NCBI GenBank assembly: GCA_965221165.1
Contig: CBDCRP010000003.1
Span: 1 to 64,000, forward strand
Length of the DNA stretch: 64,000 nt
Origin: a bacterium
GTDB taxonomy: Bacteria > UBA8248
Reading direction: 5' to 3'
Part shown: one piece after another, positions 35,311 to 63,242 of the stretch
Position numbering within the stretch: position 1 is the first letter of the stretch
How the letters are laid out: each line of letters opens with the position of its first letter
Program-made: the position numbers and the translations under genes
Notes under the pieces: model-generated
Databases searched by the model: none
Told to the model about the DNA's origin: nothing
Seen by the model: the letters and a program-made list of their open reading frames with translations, nothing else

Positions 35311-36349
35311 ATGAAATTCTCGATTTTTTACGTGATTTGTCCCGAGGGAGACGAATCAGAAGCCGACGCCTACCAGAAGGTAATGGAGCAATGCCAGGCG
35401 GCGGATGAACTCGGTTATCACTGCGCCTGGTTCGCGGAGCATCATTTCTCAAAGGTAGGTATCTGCCCGGATCCCTTGCTGTGGTGTGCAGCGCTGGCGC
35501 AGAAGACCCAAAACATCCGCCTGGGCACGGCGATCTCCATCATGCCCTTCCACAATCCGGTGCGTCTGGCCGAGCAGGCGGCGGTGGTCGATCTGCTTAG
35601 CGGCGGACGGCTGGAACTGGGCGTGGGCCGGGGTTCTCAGCCCAAGGAGTTCAAGGCGTTCGGCATGAAACCCTCTGAGAGCAGAAAGCGCCTCGTAGAA
35701 GGCATGGAGATCGTCTCGAGGCTCCTGGAAGGCGAAGAAGTGACCTTCGAGGGCGAGTATTACCAGTGCAAGGACGTGCAGATTTCCCCCCGACCCATCC
35801 AAAAGCCGAGGCCGCCCATCTGGCTCGCCGGAACGAGTCCCGAGACCTACACCTACGCGGGCGAGAACGGGTTCAAGATCATGGCCTCGGCGGGCTTCAA
35901 GGGTCCCCAGGTCTACCGCGAGAAGATGAAGCTCTACGAGGTAGGCCGTGGCGGCGGCCGGGGGAGATACCTCCGACATCGACTACACCATGACGCATCG
36001 CTTCTACGTCTGTGAGGACAACGAGCAGGCCGATTATCTGGAAAATTTTGAAAAAGGGCTTTCCTCCTACCTCGAATACCGCGCCAGGGTGAACGAGGTG
36101 GAGTTCACGGACGAGGAGGGCAGGCACCTGCAGCGCAACTGGAGCTACCAACTCGACGCGCGCGAGTTTTTAAAAGGCGGCGGCGTCATCGGCTCCGCGA
36201 AAGAGAATATTCAGGAACTCTATCGCCTGAGGGATGATTTCGGGCTGAACCACGTGATTCTCGGCGTTTACGGCGACGGGATGAAACACGAGGAGTCTCT
36301 CAAACTTCTGGAGAGATTCGCCAAAGAGGTCGCGCCCGCGATGGCCTGA
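35311..36349 (+). CDS. Luciferase-like monooxygenase (LLM), one +1 frameshift near 35942
   Basis: WFAEHHF, RLAEQAAVVDLLSGGRLELGVGRG, PRPIQKPRPPIW. The C-terminal half (...LERFAKEVAP) continues in another frame; removing T35942 joins them. Confidence 0.85.
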
Positions 36350-37085: not shown

Positions 37086-37920
37086 TTACGCCTGCGCGAT
37101 GGGCGTATCCTCCCGGTTGCCCCACTCCTTCCAGGAACTCATGTAGTTTCTGACTTTGGGGTAATCCAGAAGTCTCAGGGCGAAATAACCGTGCGCCGCA
37201 CGGTAGCCCGTCTGTCAGTAGGCCGTCACTTCTTTTTCGGGCGTGATCCCGATGGCCTCGAACTGCGCACGAAGCTCGTCCGCAGGCTTCATCTCGCCCT
37301 CGGGCGTCAGGTGCTGGAGCCACTCCTGCCAGACGGCGCCGGGGATGATTCCGCTCCGCTTGGCGCGCATGCTCCGCCCCTCCCATTCCTCTATCGAGCG
37401 GGTGTCGAGCAGCATGTGGTTATCATCCTCGATGGCCGCCATCACGTCCTCGCGCGTGGCGAGGCGATGCGGCTCGAACGCCATTTCGAAAGAAGCGGCC
37501 CGGGGCGCTTCGGCGTCGCGCGTCGTCTCGAAGCCCGCCCGCTCCCATGCGCCGTAGCCGCCGTCGAGCACGTGGACGTCCTTATGGCCGAAAAGCTCCA
37601 GCATCCAGAAGCCGCGCACGCTCGTGTTGCCGACGAAGTCGTCGTAGAAGACGATGGTGTTCTCGAACGACACCCCCCGGTTTCCCAGCAGAAACGCCCA
37701 CATGCTGAAGAAATTCCTCAAGCGGGGCCTCGTCCGAATCGTCGCTGTTCACGCCGTAGACGTCGAAGTGGCGCGCGCCGGGGATGTGGCCCATCGTGTA
37801 GCGCTCGCCGGGGCGCGTGTCGATGATTCTTAAATTCTGGTCGTCCATGCGCTCTTTGAGTTCTTCGGCCGACCAGAGCAGATCGGGATTCGCATAACCT
37901 TTTGGACTGTCGCTCGACAT
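37086..37920 (-). CDS. Tandem-domain rhodanese/sulfurtransferase, probable selenoprotein (UGA at 37215-37217; +1 frameshift near 37720)
   Basis: [24 protein letters not shown]. Reading through UGA gives [36 protein letters not shown]...TAA, the canonical rhodanese C-terminus. Confidence 0.85.
37176..37214 (-). promoter_or_regulatory. Bacterial SECIS-like hairpin
   Basis: Immediately 3' of UGA: perfect ACCGUGC/GCACGGU stem, GGC loop starting 17 nt after UGA, lower stem GGGC/GCCC. Confidence 0.75.
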
Positions 37921-37935
37921 GGTGTTCTCCTCCGT

Positions 37936-38683
37936 CTAATCCGTCCAGAAACCGCCGTTCACGTCCACGGCTTCTCCGTTGATGTGGGCGGCCTCCTCGC
38001 TCGTTAGGAACAAGACGGTGTGCCACACGTCCTCGGGCGTCGTGAGCCTGCCCATCGGATGGGCGTTCGCGGCGTTCACCAGCATCTCGGGCGGAGACTG
38101 GAAGTGAAGGCCCGTATCGGCCGGGCCCGGCTGTATGGTGTTGATCGTTACGCCCGTCTTGGCGAGTTCGCGCGCCAGGTTGAACGTCATGGCGAGCAGG
38201 CCCGCCTTGGCGGCGGCGTAGGTGAGATTCGGGCCGATGCCCCCCATTTTACCCGCGATGGAGGCGAAACTGATGATGCGCCCCGTGCCAGAGGCCTTGA
38301 GCGCCTCGATGGTCTCCTGGATACAAAAATAAGGCGCCAGCAGGTTCACGCCGAGCACCACCTCCCAGTCCTCTTCTTCGAGTTCGAGGGGAGGGCGAAT
38401 CGGCATGTAGCCGGCCACGTTGGCCAGCACGTCGCAGCCGCCCAGCCACTCGAGAGCCGTGCGCATGGTGGTGCGAATGGCGTCCACGTCGGCCAGATCG
38501 CAGGGGAGCTTGAAGAGTTGATCGGATGGGCCGTCGATGGCGTCGAAGGCCTCGCCTTCCCTGTCGGTGGCGAAAACCTTGGCGCCGGCCTCCAGGTATC
38601 CTTGCAGGATGCGGCTTCCCATGGCGCCCGCAGCACCCGTGAGGATGACCTTTCGGCCCTGGAAAGTCAAAATGAATGGACAT
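37936..38683 (-). CDS. SDR oxidoreductase (probable +1 frameshift near 38664)
   Basis: TGAAGAMG, YAAAK, DVNGG. GGAG plus ATG 38683 gives MSIHFDF, which joins QGRKVIL if one T is removed; TTG 38670 is the unshifted alternative. Confidence 0.88.
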
Positions 38684-39025
38684 CGCGTTACTCCAACTCT
38701 GGGTTTTTGGTATGAACGGAAAGTCCCTCTTCAGCTTCTCGATGGGCGGATAATACACCACAAAACGAAGGGGAGGAAGCGGGAGGGGCTATTTCCCGAA
38801 ATGCCATGAGGGGCCTTTTTCGTCGATTTTTGGGGGTTTTACTTTGCCCCTGGAGTTGCTATGATAGGCTCATCGAATGCAAGGAAGGCGACATCGCGTT
38901 CTGTCGAATCCGGGGGATTGCGATGTGATCGATGTAGTATACCTATCCAATAATCAAGCAAAGGATAAGAACATAAAAGCGCCCTGCGGCATGCGCTTCG
39001 ATGCCGCAAACGAGTGGAGGTTGTG

Positions 39026-41311
39026 ATGGCTGAACTCTCATACGTCGGAAAAAGCGTGCCTCGCGTCGATGGACCGGAAAAGGTGACGGGCCGGGCCATG
39101 TACACCCTGGACCTCCAGTTGCCCAAAATGCTTCACGGGAAGCTGCTGGGAAGTCCCCTGCCGCACGCGCGAATCAAGAACATCGACACCAGCCGCGCCG
39201 AGAGGCTACCCGGCGTCAAACTCGTGATGACGTCCAAGGACATCCCCGAGGAAGTGGAATGGGGCGTCGTACCCGTTTGCTACGATCAGCGTCCCCTCGC
39301 CTCGGACAAGGTGCGACACGTGGGCGACTCGGTGGCCGCCGTTGTGGCGACGTCTGAAGACATCGCGAAAGAGGCGCTCGACTTGATCGACGTCGACTAC
39401 GAGGATCTTCCCGCCGTCTTCGATCCGCACGAGGCGATGCAAGAGGGCGCCCCCATCCTCCATGACAGATACCCGAACAACATCGCCTTCACCAAGCACA
39501 TGGAATTCGGCGACGTGGACCGCATGTTCGACGAAGCCCACCACGTGAGCGAGCTGGCCACCACCTCCTCGCGCCAGATGCACGGGTCATTCGAGATGCA
39601 CGTCTCCATCGCCGAGTGGTCGCAAAAGGGCGACGTGACGGTCTACAACTCCTCGCAGTGCCCGAGCCTTTCGAGCCAGTATTTCTCCAAACTCCTCAAG
39701 ATTCCAGAGGCCCAGATTCGCGTGATCACGAACTACGTGGGCGGGGGGTTCGGCGGAAAGGCGACGAGTAAGTTCAACATCGATTTCCTCTCCATCATCG
39801 CGGCGAAAAAGCTGGGTCTTCCCGTGAAATTCTACTATGACCGCGAAGAGGAGTTCCTTCTCGGCACCCACCGGACGAAGCAGTTCCACGTCTGGCGCAT
39901 CGCCACGGACAAGGACGGCATGCTCCTGGCGCGCGACACCCGGATGGTGGTGGAAAACGGCGGCTATTCCGATTACGGCCCGGCGGTCGGCGGCATCACC
40001 GCGCACATGGGCGGGAGCATCTACAACTACAAGGCCTATCGCCACCACGCCGACGTCGTCTGCACGAACGTGCCGCCCGGCGGCGCGATGCGCGGCATAG
40101 GCAACGGCGGCTATTCCTTTGGTTCGGAACTCGCGATGGAGAAACACGCCGAGGAAATCGGCATGGACCCGGCGGAGTTTCGCATCAAGAACTTCGTGAG
40201 GAAGGGCGACACCACCATCATCGGGGCCAAGATCACGAGTTGCGGTGTTTCCGAGTGCGTACAGGAAGCGGTCAAGCGCGTGCCCTGGCGTCAGGAACAA
40301 CCGAGCAGCAACGGGAAAAAGCGCGGCTTCGGGCTGGCCGCGGCGGTCCATTTCACCGGCGCGCGCGCAATGGGACCGGAGACGGCGGGCGCGTTCATCA
40401 AGATGAACAAGGACGGCACCGTGCAGTTGCTCTCGGGCACCATCGAGATGGGCAACGGCTCGGACACCACGCTCGCGCAGATTTGCGCCGAAGCGTTGGG
40501 TGTGCGCGTGGAGGACGTGCGGATCATCAACGGGGATACCGCGGTGAACCCCTACGGATGGGGCGTGCGGGGAAGCCGGACGACGACCATCGACGGCGAG
40601 GCTACGCGCCTGGCGTCGGTCCAGGCGAAGAACCTGCTCTTCAAGGGCGCTGCGGAACTGCTCGAGTGCGACCCGAACGACCTGGACGCTCGTGAGGGCA
40701 AGATTTTCGTCACCAGTTCTCCCGAGAGGCAGGTGACCCACAGCGAAGCCTACATGAAAATATACGAGAAAGAGGGTAGCGAGGCCGTCTACACGGCGTC
40801 TTCGTACGACTCGCCGAGCGAGACGCCCGACCCCGTAACGGGCTATGGAAACTGGTCTGCGGCCTATGCCTACGGCGCCAAGGTGGCGGAGGTGGAAGTG
40901 GACACCGAAACAGGCGCGTTCGAGGTCTTGCGGGTCATCAGCACGAACGACGTGGGAACCATCGTGAACCCAGCCGGCGCGCAGGGCCAACTGGACGGCG
41001 GCGTGCTGATGGGCGTGGGCTACGCCATGATGGAGGATTTCGAGGTCGAAGACGGCCAGCCCGTGAACGCGAACTGGCTCGACTACAAGCTGCCGACGAC
41101 GCAGGATTTGCCCGAACTCGAAGCGGTGCTCATCGAGACGGAAAATCCCTCGGGGCCTTATGGGGCGAAAGGGCTGGGCGAGATGGCGCAGTTGGGAACG
41201 TCGGCGGCGATAGGGAACGCGATCTATGACGCCGTGGGCGTGCGGATCACGTCGCTGCCGATAACGCCCGAAAAAGTGCTGGCCGCATTGAACGAGAAAA
41301 ACGGCGACTAA
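39026..41311 (+). CDS. Xanthine dehydrogenase-family molybdopterin-binding subunit
   Basis: PRVDGPEKVTG, SPLPHARI, VGGGFGGK, GAMRGIG, EMGNG, GQLDGG, GAKGLGE; GGAGG RBS. Confidence 0.95.
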   Translation: MAELSYVGKSVPRVDGPEKVTGRAMYTLDLQLPKMLHGKLLGSPLPHARIKNIDTSRAERLPGVKLVMTSKDIPEEVEWGVVPVCYDQRPLASDKVRHVGDSVAAVVATSEDIAKEALDLIDVDYEDLPAVFDPHEAMQEGAPILHDRYPNNIAFTKHMEFGDVDRMFDEAHHVSELATTSSRQMHGSFEMHVSIAEWSQKGDVTVYNSSQCPSLSSQYFSKLLKIPEAQIRVITNYVGGGFGGKATSKFNIDFLSIIAAKKLGLPVKFYYDREEEFLLGTHRTKQFHVWRIATDKDGMLLARDTRMVVENGGYSDYGPAVGGITAHMGGSIYNYKAYRHHADVVCTNVPPGGAMRGIGNGGYSFGSELAMEKHAEEIGMDPAEFRIKNFVRKGDTTIIGAKITSCGVSECVQEAVKRVPWRQEQPSSNGKKRGFGLAAAVHFTGARAMGPETAGAFIKMNKDGTVQLLSGTIEMGNGSDTTLAQICAEALGVRVEDVRIINGDTAVNPYGWGVRGSRTTTIDGEATRLASVQAKNLLFKGAAELLECDPNDLDAREGKIFVTSSPERQVTHSEAYMKIYEKEGSEAVYTASSYDSPSETPDPVTGYGNWSAAYAYGAKVAEVEVDTETGAFEVLRVISTNDVGTIVNPAGAQGQLDGGVLMGVGYAMMEDFEVEDGQPVNANWLDYKLPTTQDLPELEAVLIETENPSGPYGAKGLGEMAQLGTSAAIGNAIYDAVGVRITSLPITPEKVLAALNEKNGD

Positions 41312-41329
41312 CGAGGAGAGGGGATAACA

Positions 41330-42196
41330 ATGGCTTTTCGGCATCTATCCGCGAACAGCGCGGAGGAAACGCTCGCCGCCATGAAGGAGCACGGCGAGGA
41401 CGGGAAAGTGTTCGCCGGCGGCGTGGCCCTCTCGATTCTCATGAAATCGCGGGTGTACGAACCCGAGGTTTTGATAGACATCGCGGGCGCGGGGGACCTT
41501 GATTTCATCGAAGGAACCGAAAACGGAGGCGTCCGTATCGGGGCGAAGACGGTGCACCGCAAAATCGAACTCTCCCCACTCGTTCAGGAACGCTTCCCGC
41601 TGCTTGCGGAGATATTTCACAACGTGGCGACGATTCGCATCCGAAACCAGGGGACGGTGGGCGGCAACCTGTGCTTTGCGGAACCGGCATCGGATCCGCC
41701 GGGCGCTTTTTTGGCCCTTGAGGCCCGCATGAACACCAGGAAGGCGGACGGATCGGAGCGCGTGATTCCCGCGACGGAGTTCTGGACGGGATATTACGAG
41801 TGCGCCCTGGATGAGGATGAGTTGTTGTGCTCGATCGAGGTCGACCCGCTGCCCGATGGCTTCCGGACGGCCTGCACGCGCTTCACCACGCGCTCGAAAG
41901 AGGATAAGCCCTGCGTATCCGTCTCCACCGCGGTGCTCACCGAAGAAGACGGCAAAACGGCCAAAGAGGTGCGAATCGGCCTGGGCGGCGTGGAGGCCGT
42001 GTTCAGACGCCTCAGGGCGGCGGAAGAAGGCCTGCGAGGCAAGGAACTCACCCAGGAGAACATCGACGCCGTGCTCTCAGACGCGCTCGATGACCTGGAG
42101 CCTCTGACCGATATCCGCGCGAGCGGCGACTACAGAAGGCAGGTGACGCCCGTCTTGATCAGGCGAACCATTCTGAAGGCGTTGGGCGCATCCTGA
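41330..42196 (+). CDS. Xanthine dehydrogenase-family FAD subunit (CoxM-like)
   Basis: AGGVAL, IRNQGTVGGNLCFAEPASD, DIRASGDYR. Confidence 0.93.
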   Translation: MAFRHLSANSAEETLAAMKEHGEDGKVFAGGVALSILMKSRVYEPEVLIDIAGAGDLDFIEGTENGGVRIGAKTVHRKIELSPLVQERFPLLAEIFHNVATIRIRNQGTVGGNLCFAEPASDPPGAFLALEARMNTRKADGSERVIPATEFWTGYYECALDEDELLCSIEVDPLPDGFRTACTRFTTRSKEDKPCVSVSTAVLTEEDGKTAKEVRIGLGGVEAVFRRLRAAEEGLRGKELTQENIDAVLSDALDDLEPLTDIRASGDYRRQVTPVLIRRTILKALGAS

Positions 42197-42415
42197 CCTG
42201 AGGGCTTGGGTTTGTTACTCGAATTGGGGTTGATTGAGCAAGCTACGCCCACATAAAAATATGTTTCACCACGTCCGCGGATAAGGATGAGCGAGGCATC
42301 CTTTCGATTATTCGCTCCACAAGGGATACTTAATACTCGAAGAGGTCGTTTTCGTGAAACCGCCTCTTCAGTTGCAGGATGCTGCTTGTCGAACTTCAGA
42401 CGGTGGGACAGAGAT

Positions 42416-43768
42416 ATGAAGAGAAATAGGACAAATCGTTTCGGTTTAGCGCTTCTTGGATGTGTAACAGCCATGGCGTTGTTCGTTGCGTCGGCTGCCG
42501 GAGGCGAGATCGATGATATCAAGGCGCAGATCAAGGCGCTCATGAATCGGCTCGAAGGCATTGAAGCCCGAGAGAAGAAGATGAAGGCCGACATGAAGGC
42601 CGCGGCGGAAGCCGTCAAGACAAAGGCCGTGGCTACCGGCGACTTCCCGGGTTCCTGGAAGATGCCGGGGAGCAACACGTCGGTCTCCTTTGGCGGCTAC
42701 GTCAAGCTCGACGCGATCTACGATCTCGACCAGGCTCTGGGCGATACCTTTTTCGGATACGATTACGGGGGCGACCCGAGTCCCATTAAGCTGGATGACA
42801 GTGGTCAGCGCAAGTTCTCCATGCACGCCAATCAGACGCGCCTGCGTTTCGACAGCCTGACGCCGACGAAGATGGGCAACCTCAAGACTCGCATCGAGAC
42901 CGATTTCTTATACGACAGCGGCTCGCATCTTCGCCTTCGCCACGCCTACGCCTCTTTGGGTGGGGTGCTGGTGGGCCAGAACTGGTCGATCCTGGGGGAT
43001 GAGAATACCTACGCCGACACGATTGATGTCGAAGGGCCCGTGGGCGTGGTTGCCATACGTCGGCCCCAGGTGCGCTATACCTCTGCCATGGGGAAGAATC
43101 TCACCGCCCAGATAGCACTCGATGACCCCGACAGCCCGAAGATCCTGACCGTCAACGCTGAAAAGAAGAAAGCCGATGATCCGATTTTTCTCAAGAAGCC
43201 CTCCCAGGATCGGATTCCGAACCTTCTGGCGGCTCTGCGCCTGAAAACGAGTTGGGGCGCCATTAACGTGTCGGGCTTGGTGGGGCAGGTTCTCTACGAA
43301 GATAGGAAGCTGGGGGTGGAGGAAAATCTCACGATCTCCGCCCTCCACCTCGGCGCGAACGTCGGCTTGGGCAAGGACACCCGCCTCTGGGGGAGTTTCA
43401 ACATCGGCCAGGGCGGACTGCAGGGCTACATGGTCGGGGCGACCGCCGCCGCCACTCTGGGCGCGGGCGGTGAACTGGAGGCCGTAGACTCCACGGGCGG
43501 TTTTGTCGGCCTCACGCACAACTGGAGCGGCTCCGTGAGTTCGGGCGTGTACTACGGCTGGGTCGAGACCGATTATGAGGATTCCGCCAAGACAACCTAT
43601 GCGAGTGCCCACAGCCAGTCGCAGCGTACGCTCCACGTCAATTTCTGGTGGTCGCCCGCACCCAAGATGCGAGCCGGCGTGGAGTTCATACAAGGCTGGC
43701 GCGAGACCAACGACGACAGAAAGGGCAACGCTTCGCGCCTGCAATTGGGTCTTGTGTATAGCTTCTAG
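42416..43768 (+). CDS. DcaP-like outer-membrane porin
   Basis: Signal peptide, periplasmic coiled coil, FGGYVKLD, RIETDF, LRLRHAY, LVGQNWS, RRPQVRY, C-terminal YSF. Confidence 0.85.
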   Translation: MKRNRTNRFGLALLGCVTAMALFVASAAGGEIDDIKAQIKALMNRLEGIEAREKKMKADMKAAAEAVKTKAVATGDFPGSWKMPGSNTSVSFGGYVKLDAIYDLDQALGDTFFGYDYGGDPSPIKLDDSGQRKFSMHANQTRLRFDSLTPTKMGNLKTRIETDFLYDSGSHLRLRHAYASLGGVLVGQNWSILGDENTYADTIDVEGPVGVVAIRRPQVRYTSAMGKNLTAQIALDDPDSPKILTVNAEKKKADDPIFLKKPSQDRIPNLLAALRLKTSWGAINVSGLVGQVLYEDRKLGVEENLTISALHLGANVGLGKDTRLWGSFNIGQGGLQGYMVGATAAATLGAGGELEAVDSTGGFVGLTHNWSGSVSSGVYYGWVETDYEDSAKTTYASAHSQSQRTLHVNFWWSPAPKMRAGVEFIQGWRETNDDRKGNASRLQLGLVYSF

Positions 43769-62363: not shown

Positions 62364-63242
62364 TTGGTCGATTCCATCCATCCCAATATCCTGGCTCTCA
62401 TCGCCGCTTGTTTTATCGCCTCCGCCCGCACTCTTTACCGCGCCGGCGTGGCGCGCCTGAGCCTGGTTGTGATGAACGTCATCATGGCTCCCGTGCAAGT
62501 GTGTTTCGGCACTGTTTTTTACTTCCTGGAAGGCGGTGTGGCGGATTGGCCGCTCGGAGGCCTGCTCAGGTTCGCCGCCATGGGTGTTTCCGGCTCGCTT
62601 ATCGGCCGTTATTTGAGCCTCGTGGGCATGAAGCTGGTGGGATTGGCGCGTTCCTCGATCGTCACTCAAACGAGTCTCGTGTGGGCGTCGTTGTTTGCGG
62701 TGGTTTTCGCAGGGGAGCAGATGACGTGGATCATCGCGGTCGGGACGCTGGCCATCATGATGGGCTCGATTCTTCTTGTTTATGAAAAAGGCGATATCCA
62801 AAAGCGCATCCCGCTTACTGCTATATCTTCCCTTTGGGGACCGCTGTTTTGTTTGCGATGACGCACCTGTTCGGCAAGTTTGGGCTGCAGCTCATCAAAT
62901 CCGCCTCCTTCGGTATGACGGTCGGCAGCATGATGGCGTTTTGTTTCATGATGATTGTCCTGCCTTTCTCCGTCGAGGGAAGAGCACCCAAATCCTGGGA
63001 TAAAAAGGGAGTCGTGGCCGTTTTAGGCGGCGCATGTCTGAACGCCATAGCGGCCTTTTTCTTCTGGTCATCCATCAAAACGGGGACATCGTTCAACTCA
63101 TTCCTCTCAACCGCTTCTCGGTGTTGCTCATCATTTTCCTGTCCTGGGTGTTTTCAGAAAACAAGAGGCGGTGGGCTGGCGTGTCGTCATCGGCGGTTTC
63201 TTGTTCGTCCTGGGAGCCGTTGGGGTTGTTTTGGGCAAATAG
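62364..63242 (+). pseudogene. EamA paralog broken by three single-base deletions (pseudogene or assembly error)
   Basis: Colinear with the upstream paralog when the frame is switched near 62814, 63078 and 63153; ends ...AVGVVLGK-TAG at 63242. Confidence 0.75.

Follow-up and report, generated by a model that had tools for sequence, protein, structure and literature searches.

A gene on the minus strand of the window (the entire 64,000-nt stretch of DNA analysed here), located at 37086..37920, very probably encodes a sulfurtransferase with two rhodanese-type domains, whose catalytic residue in the C-terminal domain is selenocysteine (Sec) instead of cysteine, inserted at an in-frame UGA codon by means of SelB and a downstream hairpin. 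The recoding signals and the machinery, as well as conservation and selection across the relatives, are observed directly. The initial annotation, made from the letters of the window, had proposed a Sec-decoding rhodanese that is truncated by gene callers. This proposal is borne out by the machinery of the genome, the catalytic column, the conservation of the TGA and the hairpin, purifying selection downstream of the TGA, and the 234-aa length of the public predictions.

Results

Gene organization and position of the in-frame UGA codon

The gene is of the thiosulfate/3-mercaptopyruvate sulfurtransferase type and contains the rhodanese domain (PF00581) twice. It starts with the ATG at 37920-37918 on the minus strand and ends with its true stop, the TAA at 37088-37086. 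The gene contains about 277 codons when an extra base at ~37723 is ignored and the TGA at 37217-37215 is read as Sec. In the deposited sequence, this reading is distributed over two frames, such that the N-terminal ~66 codons run from 37920 to ~37724 and the remainder from 37721 to 37086. In the open reading frame opened by the ATG, Pfam recognizes the first part of a rhodanese domain (PF00581, 1.4e-10). The second frame runs through ...EVTAY to the TGA and continues for 42 further codons up to the TAA. The U-containing translation across the TGA is reproduced exactly as the initial annotation gave it, and the three elements that it named (the TGA, the hairpin, and the break in frame near 37720) are all present in the window sequence.

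An intact copy of the gene in the same assembly (P0002; 277 aa, Sec at position 235, 94% identical to the window gene) was used as the query for domain and structure comparisons. PF00581 matches P0002 in two stretches (110.5 bits), and U235 is located within the C-terminal domain. The best solved relative is RhdA from A. vinelandii (1e0c), which is aligned over residues 10-274 with an E value of 6e-40, followed by the Thermus rhodanese (1uar, 2e-38). U235 is aligned with the active-site Cys of 1e0c (HCQTHHRS) and with that of 1uar, so that the TGA occupies the catalytic position of the loop Y-U-Q-T-G-Y-R-A. According to the alignment with 1e0c, the codons that follow the TGA specify both the loop of the active site and the C-terminal strand that is conserved in the rhodanese fold. 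The protein thus shows the two-domain rhodanese architecture, in which a loop of the C-terminal domain carries the catalytic residue.

The same column is occupied by Cys in remoter orthologs. The ortholog of G024, which is 64% identical and located directly behind the same short-chain dehydrogenase/reductase (SDR) gene, has Cys in the sequence PY-C-QTGYRS, and four class-level orthologs with 48-51% identity have Cys in Y-C-QGGYRS. The Cys codon in the TGA column of these 48-64%-identity orthologs is TGC or TGT. These results indicate that the UGA is in frame at a position where homologs have Cys, as the initial annotation claimed, and that Cys and TGA forms both exist at the catalytic column. 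The proteins predicted in public records for close relatives have a length of 234 aa and end right before the Sec codon. The relatives are named 'thiosulfate/3-mercaptopyruvate sulfurtransferase' by JGI.

SECIS-type hairpin downstream of the UGA

Folding and the constraints for bacterial SECIS (bSECIS) elements identify a SECIS-type hairpin at 37178..37209 on the minus strand, which begins 10 nt after the UGA. Its upper stem consists of 7 bp, formed by the 5' arm ACCGUGC (37204-37198) and the 3' arm GCACGGU (37194-37188), and encloses the apical loop GGC (37197-37195). The lower stem is formed by GGGC (37209-37206) paired with GCCC (37181-37178). According to the legend of Fig. 2 in PMC13188914, bSECIS elements have a loop of 3-9 nt, a stem of 4-16 bp, a spacing of 16-37 nt, a G in the first two loop positions and a minimum free energy of −7.5 kcal/mol or lower. 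The window hairpin satisfies all of these published constraints with its 3-nt loop, its 7-bp stem, its spacing of 17 nt between the UGA and the loop, and its minimum free energy of −15.8 kcal/mol (48 nt folded). Stem, loop, lower stem and spacing are all as the initial annotation described them when it assigned the geometry to the bacterial SECIS model.

The folding energy alone is not significant. A 76-nt stretch has a z value of −1.37, and 17 of 200 shuffled sequences are at least as stable, which is ordinary for the G+C-rich sequence around the hairpin. When a comparable hairpin is defined as one with a perfect 7-bp stem and a G in the first two loop positions at 16-37 nt after TGA, it is found behind 14 (0.76%) of the window's 1850 TGA trinucleotides. 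The real significance of the hairpin lies in the comparative evidence. The stem is absent from the Cys-form orthologs when these are folded. Similar hairpins, with a G-first triloop at 17-19 nt past the UGA, are present in the selD gene and in the second Sec rhodanese gene of the genome. The stem varies by CGT to CGC in two loci (L062 and L064) and by GGT to GGC in L065 and in the copy on contig C2, and the three stem variants have one uncompensated mismatch each. No compensatory covariation is detected in the stem among the aligned relatives and loci, in which variation is too low for a covariation test. Part of the conservation of the hairpin region is at the protein level, because the nucleotides of this region also encode the invariant active-site loop; only synonymous sites speak for the RNA.

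Conservation of the UGA and selection on the downstream region

Orthologs were searched for in 40 relatives plus the window's genome (G000). Of the 23 genus genomes, 22 contain an ortholog with 84-100% identity and exactly one TGA; in the 23rd (G004), the contig ends at residue 132, before the TGA site. The TGA is also present in G023, which belongs to another genus of the family and has a 72% identical ortholog, and it is absent from G024 and from all remoter matches of this search. All 21 aligned sequences have the TGA in the same column and a conserved downstream peptide, and in all of them the frame after the UGA is open to a shared stop region.

Species genomes of GTDB were also scanned, giving 28 loci with the labels Nitrospinota, Nitrospinae, Nitrospinaceae, Candidatus Tectomicrobia or just 'bacterium'; one of them (L074) ends before the TGA site. 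Each of the other 27 public loci extends across the site and has the TGA there. In 23 of these 27, the sequence from the TGA through the following 30 nt does not differ from that of the window, and the 23 include the six most distant loci (73-77% protein identity). These counts do not represent independent events, as the relatives are close kin from one clade, and the genus genomes and GTDB loci overlap, many being the same genomes. Both the TGA and the hairpin, whose loss from relatives the initial annotation named as evidence against a selenoprotein, are kept wherever the TGA site is reached.

Averaged over the gene, the pairwise synonymous difference amounts to 0.297; in the 11-codon segments whose first codon lies between 4 codons before U and 1 codon after it, it is 0.021-0.089. 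When all 277 segments are ranked, the eight with the lowest values begin no more than 6 codons before the UGA and no more than 1 codon after it. Synonymous diversity is thus lower in the hairpin region than anywhere else in the gene, which is characteristic of an RNA element superimposed on a coding sequence. The dN/dS value is 0.109 for codons 11-40 after the UGA, which are outside the hairpin (395 pairs), and 0.153 for the 165 codons that precede the UGA. Coding constraint thus continues after the UGA. The region downstream of the UGA is under protein-level selection, and is therefore translated.

Selenocysteine machinery of the genome

The genome to which the window belongs consists of 3 contigs with a total of 3.69 Mb, and is 96% complete with 8.5% contamination. 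It contains the full set of selA, selB, selC and selD, in accordance with what the initial annotation expected of a Sec-decoding organism, and all four score above their curated cutoffs. The selA (564 bits) and selB (384 bits) genes are adjacent and contain no internal stops; therefore TGA is not a general sense codon in this genome. A single tRNA-Sec with the anticodon tca is detected by ARAGORN and matches Rfam RF01852 with 75.9 bits against a cutoff of 47. The selD gene is identified by a profile search with 329.8 bits. A search with TIGR03167 for selU, the gene for tRNA 2-selenouridine synthase, detects none in the genome, which is 96% complete.

Two further selenoprotein genes are observed outside the window. 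SelD is itself a selenoprotein, with an in-frame TGA in KAGG-U-GSKLG (G000:C2:975065-976027), and the hairpin of its gene is located 17 nt past the UGA. A second two-domain Sec rhodanese, which is 32% identical and contains the sequence LVLY-U-RLSHRAS, is encoded at G000:C3:1059118-1059747. In its gene too, a hairpin with a G-first triloop follows the UGA, at a distance of 19 nt, and a TGA-containing match to this second type is listed in 22 of the 23 genus genomes.

Extra base in the window copy

The alignment of 21 sequences reveals a single, frame-shifting extra base at ~37723 on the minus strand, the placement of which is ambiguous within 37720-37724. The sequence at this site is GGCCCCGCTTGAGG in the window and GGCCCC-CTTGAGG in the nearest relative. 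The extra base is unique to the window, and is absent from all 20 other aligned sequences, including all 19 genus orthologs. The window copy is accordingly not a single open frame from ATG to TAA, even with the Sec codon set aside, and as deposited it cannot yield a full-length protein.

Contigs of four public runs (X1, X3, X5 and X17) were aligned to the window. One X5 contig, which spans 37096-37986, and one X1 contig leave out the extra base, and no public-run contig reported across ~37723 (these two) carries it. No alternative letter is found at 37215-37217 in the contigs of the four runs, all of which cover this site, although contigs can hide rare variants and none of the four runs need be the source of the assembly. 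The stretches of X3 and X17 without contig cover give no evidence either way. The contigs of the X17 metatranscriptome (37086-37222 and 37753-38000; 90-99% likeness) were also considered as evidence for expression, and were rejected because contigs from an RNA library cannot demonstrate that the gene is transcribed in the present organism.

Two similar insertions are observed nearby. A window-specific single-base insertion is located at ~38666, within the first codons of the SDR gene, and another at ~35942, inside a gene for a luciferase-like monooxygenase (35311-36349), which is split over two frames in the list of open reading frames. Both are absent from all 19 genus orthologs. Three conserved genes within 3.6 kb thus contain a window-specific insertion each (37723, 38666 and 35942), and none of the three extra bases is in a homopolymer. 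Over ~58.5 kb aligned to three relatives, with intergenic sites included, the number of lineage-specific indels with a length not divisible by 3 is 17 for the window, 6 for the sister genome G007 and 8 for G005, and another contig of the same assembly has 21 such indels. The excess of 17 over 6 relative to the sister genome is modest. Sorting of the indels between the window and contig C2 by open frame was uninformative, as G+C-rich DNA keeps alternative frames open, and did not flag 37723. When the longest open frame was determined for each indel, a comparison that is equally confounded, the window indels at 35942, 62816-63151, 22127 and 83 seem to shorten the frame relative to G007. At 62816-63151, three window-specific single-base deletions occur within ~340 nt, and the open frame of the G007 counterpart is longer (882 nt versus 531-666 nt). 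This region may represent another broken or mis-assembled gene.

A region of ~110 kb is present twice in the assembly. C3:1-110458 and C2:1-109126 are collinear, inverted versions of this region with 82-96% identity, and an intact copy of the Sec rhodanese gene is located at C2:70556-71389. The doubling looks like the merging of two related populations at contig ends, which fits the contamination estimate of 8.5%. The window copy shows no sign of relaxed selection, as its comparison with G007 and G005 gives dN/dS values of 0.14-0.15 for the part before the UGA and 0.03 for the part after it.

Gene neighbourhood

The SDR gene is located at 37936..38683 (start approximate) on the minus strand and is assigned by Pfam adh_short_C2 (1.9e-45). 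It lies ~15 nt upstream of the rhodanese gene, on the same strand, in all 28 loci, and is likely to be its operon partner. On the plus strand, a molybdenum hydroxylase is encoded by genes for a large subunit (39014-41311; Pfam Ald_Xan_dh_C, MoCoBD_1 and MoCoBD_2) and an FAD-binding subunit (41330-42196; Pfam FAD_binding_5 and CO_deh_flav_C). This hydroxylase is divergent from the SDR-rhodanese pair in 24 of the 26 testable loci, including those of MAGs labelled as Tectomicrobia; the flank is too short in two of the 28 loci, and it is present without the hydroxylase in L069 and L070. The arrangement described by the initial annotation is therefore a conserved one in this clade. The class-level Cys orthologs have neither the SDR gene nor the hydroxylase as a neighbour. 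In the window at 39014-43768, a porin-like gene follows those for the large and FAD-binding subunits, and no gene for a 2Fe-2S small subunit adjoins the hydroxylase genes.

The yqeB and yqeC genes are markers of the maturation of selenium-dependent molybdenum hydroxylases. In the genome, yqeB is detected with 360.6 bits (cutoff 220) and yqeC is detected twice, with 154 and 136 bits (cutoff 73); these yqeB and yqeC genes are ~500 kb from the rhodanese locus. The yqeB cluster (G000:C3:542572-546960, corresponding to L080:8572-12960) consists of yqeB, a gene for a CobS/MoxR-like AAA ATPase, a gene for a CobT/vWA-like protein, and yqeC. In this cluster (C3:542-547 kb), yqeB and yqeC are accompanied by CoxD/CoxE-like genes. 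No hydroxylase subunit is encoded within the 19 kb scanned around it. The second yqeC gene is located at C3:1667157.

Discussion

Interpretation of the UGA and of the frame break

The UGA could be regarded as an ordinary stop codon, giving a 234-aa product that lacks the catalytic residue. The public predictions for close relatives have exactly this length, and TGA is a normal stop elsewhere, some orthologs ending in TGA for example. However, the 42 codons after the TGA are open in all relatives, with a dN/dS value of 0.11, and a protein truncated at the TGA would be deprived of its catalytic loop and C-terminal strand, so that ordinary termination is extremely unlikely. It is also conceivable that the UGA is read through by near-cognate decoding, with insertion of Cys or Trp, as the identity of the inserted residue is predicted here from the sequence. 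Such a decoding is very unlikely, because the genome has a complete Sec system, the consensus SECIS hairpin is under constraint at synonymous sites, and precisely those orthologs that have Cys in place of the TGA are without the hairpin.

The family being a genuine selenoprotein family, the window copy might still be a real pseudogene that has been inactivated recently. The frameshift stands in the deposited sequence, the extra bases are not homopolymer slips, and the second, intact version of the 110-kb region (84-92% identity) could make one copy dispensable if both are in one cell. In contrast, inactivation would have to account for three independent window-specific insertions in three conserved genes within 3.6 kb, with no other lesion, and for dN/dS values of 0.03-0.15 between the window copy and its relatives. 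Besides, the extra base occurs in none of the public contigs spanning the site, and the location of the two 110-kb versions at the ends of two contigs points to merged populations rather than to duplication within a genome. Recent inactivation is therefore an unlikely reading, though one of appreciable weight, and the extra base at ~37723 is probably an indel error of the assembly. A programmed ribosomal frameshift at this site, for which the frame break itself is the only indication, has a negligible probability, as all 20 relatives are in one frame there and share no slippery motif. The frame break near 37720, which the initial annotation would have taken for gene decay if genuine, is thus present in the deposited sequence, but genuine decay is less favoured than an error of assembly.

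Proposed function

We infer the insertion of Sec itself, as well as the chemistry and the physiological substrate, as follows. During translation, SelB carrying Sec-tRNA(Sec) would bind the hairpin. The UGA at 37217-37215 would then be recoded as Sec, and translation would run for 42 more codons to the TAA at 37088-37086. The double-displacement cycle is established rhodanese chemistry, and by analogy with Cys rhodaneses the enzyme may follow the same mechanism. The selenolate at the active site would take sulfane sulfur, or selenium, from a donor to form an Se-S(H), or Se-Se, intermediate, and this intermediate would hand the sulfur or selenium atom to an acceptor.

The initial annotation raised, as a speculation, a link between the Sec rhodanese and the molybdenum hydroxylase, the cofactor of which needs a terminal S or Se ligand. 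All that speaks for this link is conserved synteny among close kin and the occurrence of yqeB and yqeC at other places in the genome, and it is still speculative. It is improbable that the Sec rhodanese and the SDR constitute a dedicated sulfur or selenium donor for the hydroxylase that would give the molybdenum cofactor its terminal ligand.

Gene callers cut the rhodanese at 234 aa, before the catalytic residue, in every close relative on record, and in the present assembly the gene will resemble a doubly broken pseudogene. Once it is recognized, the annotation is put right throughout a genus of uncultured bacteria that bear the label Nitrospinota and possess two or more distinct Sec rhodaneses as well as a SelD that contains Sec. 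The Sec orthologs of the genus and the Cys ortholog of G024, which are matched in the same gene context, form a clean pair for examining the benefit of Sec to a sulfurtransferase.

Comparison with known sulfurtransferases

RhdA (1e0c) has the same two-domain layout as the protein described here. It has Cys instead of Sec, and its loop is C-Q-T-H-H-R-S, compared with U-Q-T-G-Y-R-A, such that loop residues 4-5 differ. The UQTGYRA loop is nevertheless closest to the RhdA type. The 3-mercaptopyruvate sulfurtransferase of the E. coli SseA type (NF008557) also has the same two-domain architecture, and its model is aligned over the full length (residues 16-276). Membership in this equivalog family is rejected, however, at 134.3 bits against a cutoff of 250. 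The loop of these sulfurtransferases, which we take to be CG[ST]GVTA, is not matched by that of the rhodanese described here. The NCBIfam family NF041203 (rhodanese_LYCAU '(seleno)protein') is likewise a rhodanese selenoprotein family. Unlike the two-domain protein described here, its model represents a single domain of 126 positions with a CxU motif. Membership in this family is rejected as well, at 36.1 bits against a cutoff of 115 and with a match to the N-terminal domain only.

Sec-containing rhodanese-related sulfurtransferases have been in print since 2005, when the Sargasso Sea selenoproteome was reported (PMC1088965). Table 1 of that report has an entry 'Rhodanese-related sulfurtransferase', COG2897, with 3 sequences, and a SECIS element is depicted in its Fig. 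3. 'Sulfurtransferase COG2897' is given with 3 Sec and 4 Cys forms in the study of the Olavius symbionts (PMC1976440), and rows for cd01449 and COG2897 are present in the GOS survey (PMC2398784). Reviews of 2022 and 2026 list the Sec rhodanese family, including 'form 4' with the motif UxxG (PMC9312934, PMC13188914). The published Sec rhodaneses appear in these entries as computational predictions only, the descriptions given there being free of enzyme assays. A limited literature search found no paper joining Nitrospinota, selenocysteine and sulfurtransferase, and no paper on the biochemistry of a Sec thiosulfate sulfurtransferase. The initial annotation was therefore right to speak of a reported but little-studied family, as far as these listings go. 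It was not right to present the selenoprotein as hidden, since the family (COG2897/cd01449, UxxG) has been listed since 2005.

The gene described here is a genuine and conserved selenoprotein gene of this already described and biochemically unstudied family, and not a new kind of system. It has the PF00581 domain together with the UxxG motif (U-Q-T-G), and it fits 'form 4' by its domain, by the COG-type naming of its relatives and by this motif. As far as the published entries describe them, the Sec rhodaneses of COG2897/cd01449 have in common with it the rhodanese domain, the catalytic Sec within UxxG (here UQTG), a bSECIS hairpin with a G in a small apical loop, and the existence of Cys homologs. 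It differs from them in lineage, as it is found here in MAGs labelled Nitrospinota and Candidatus Tectomicrobia.
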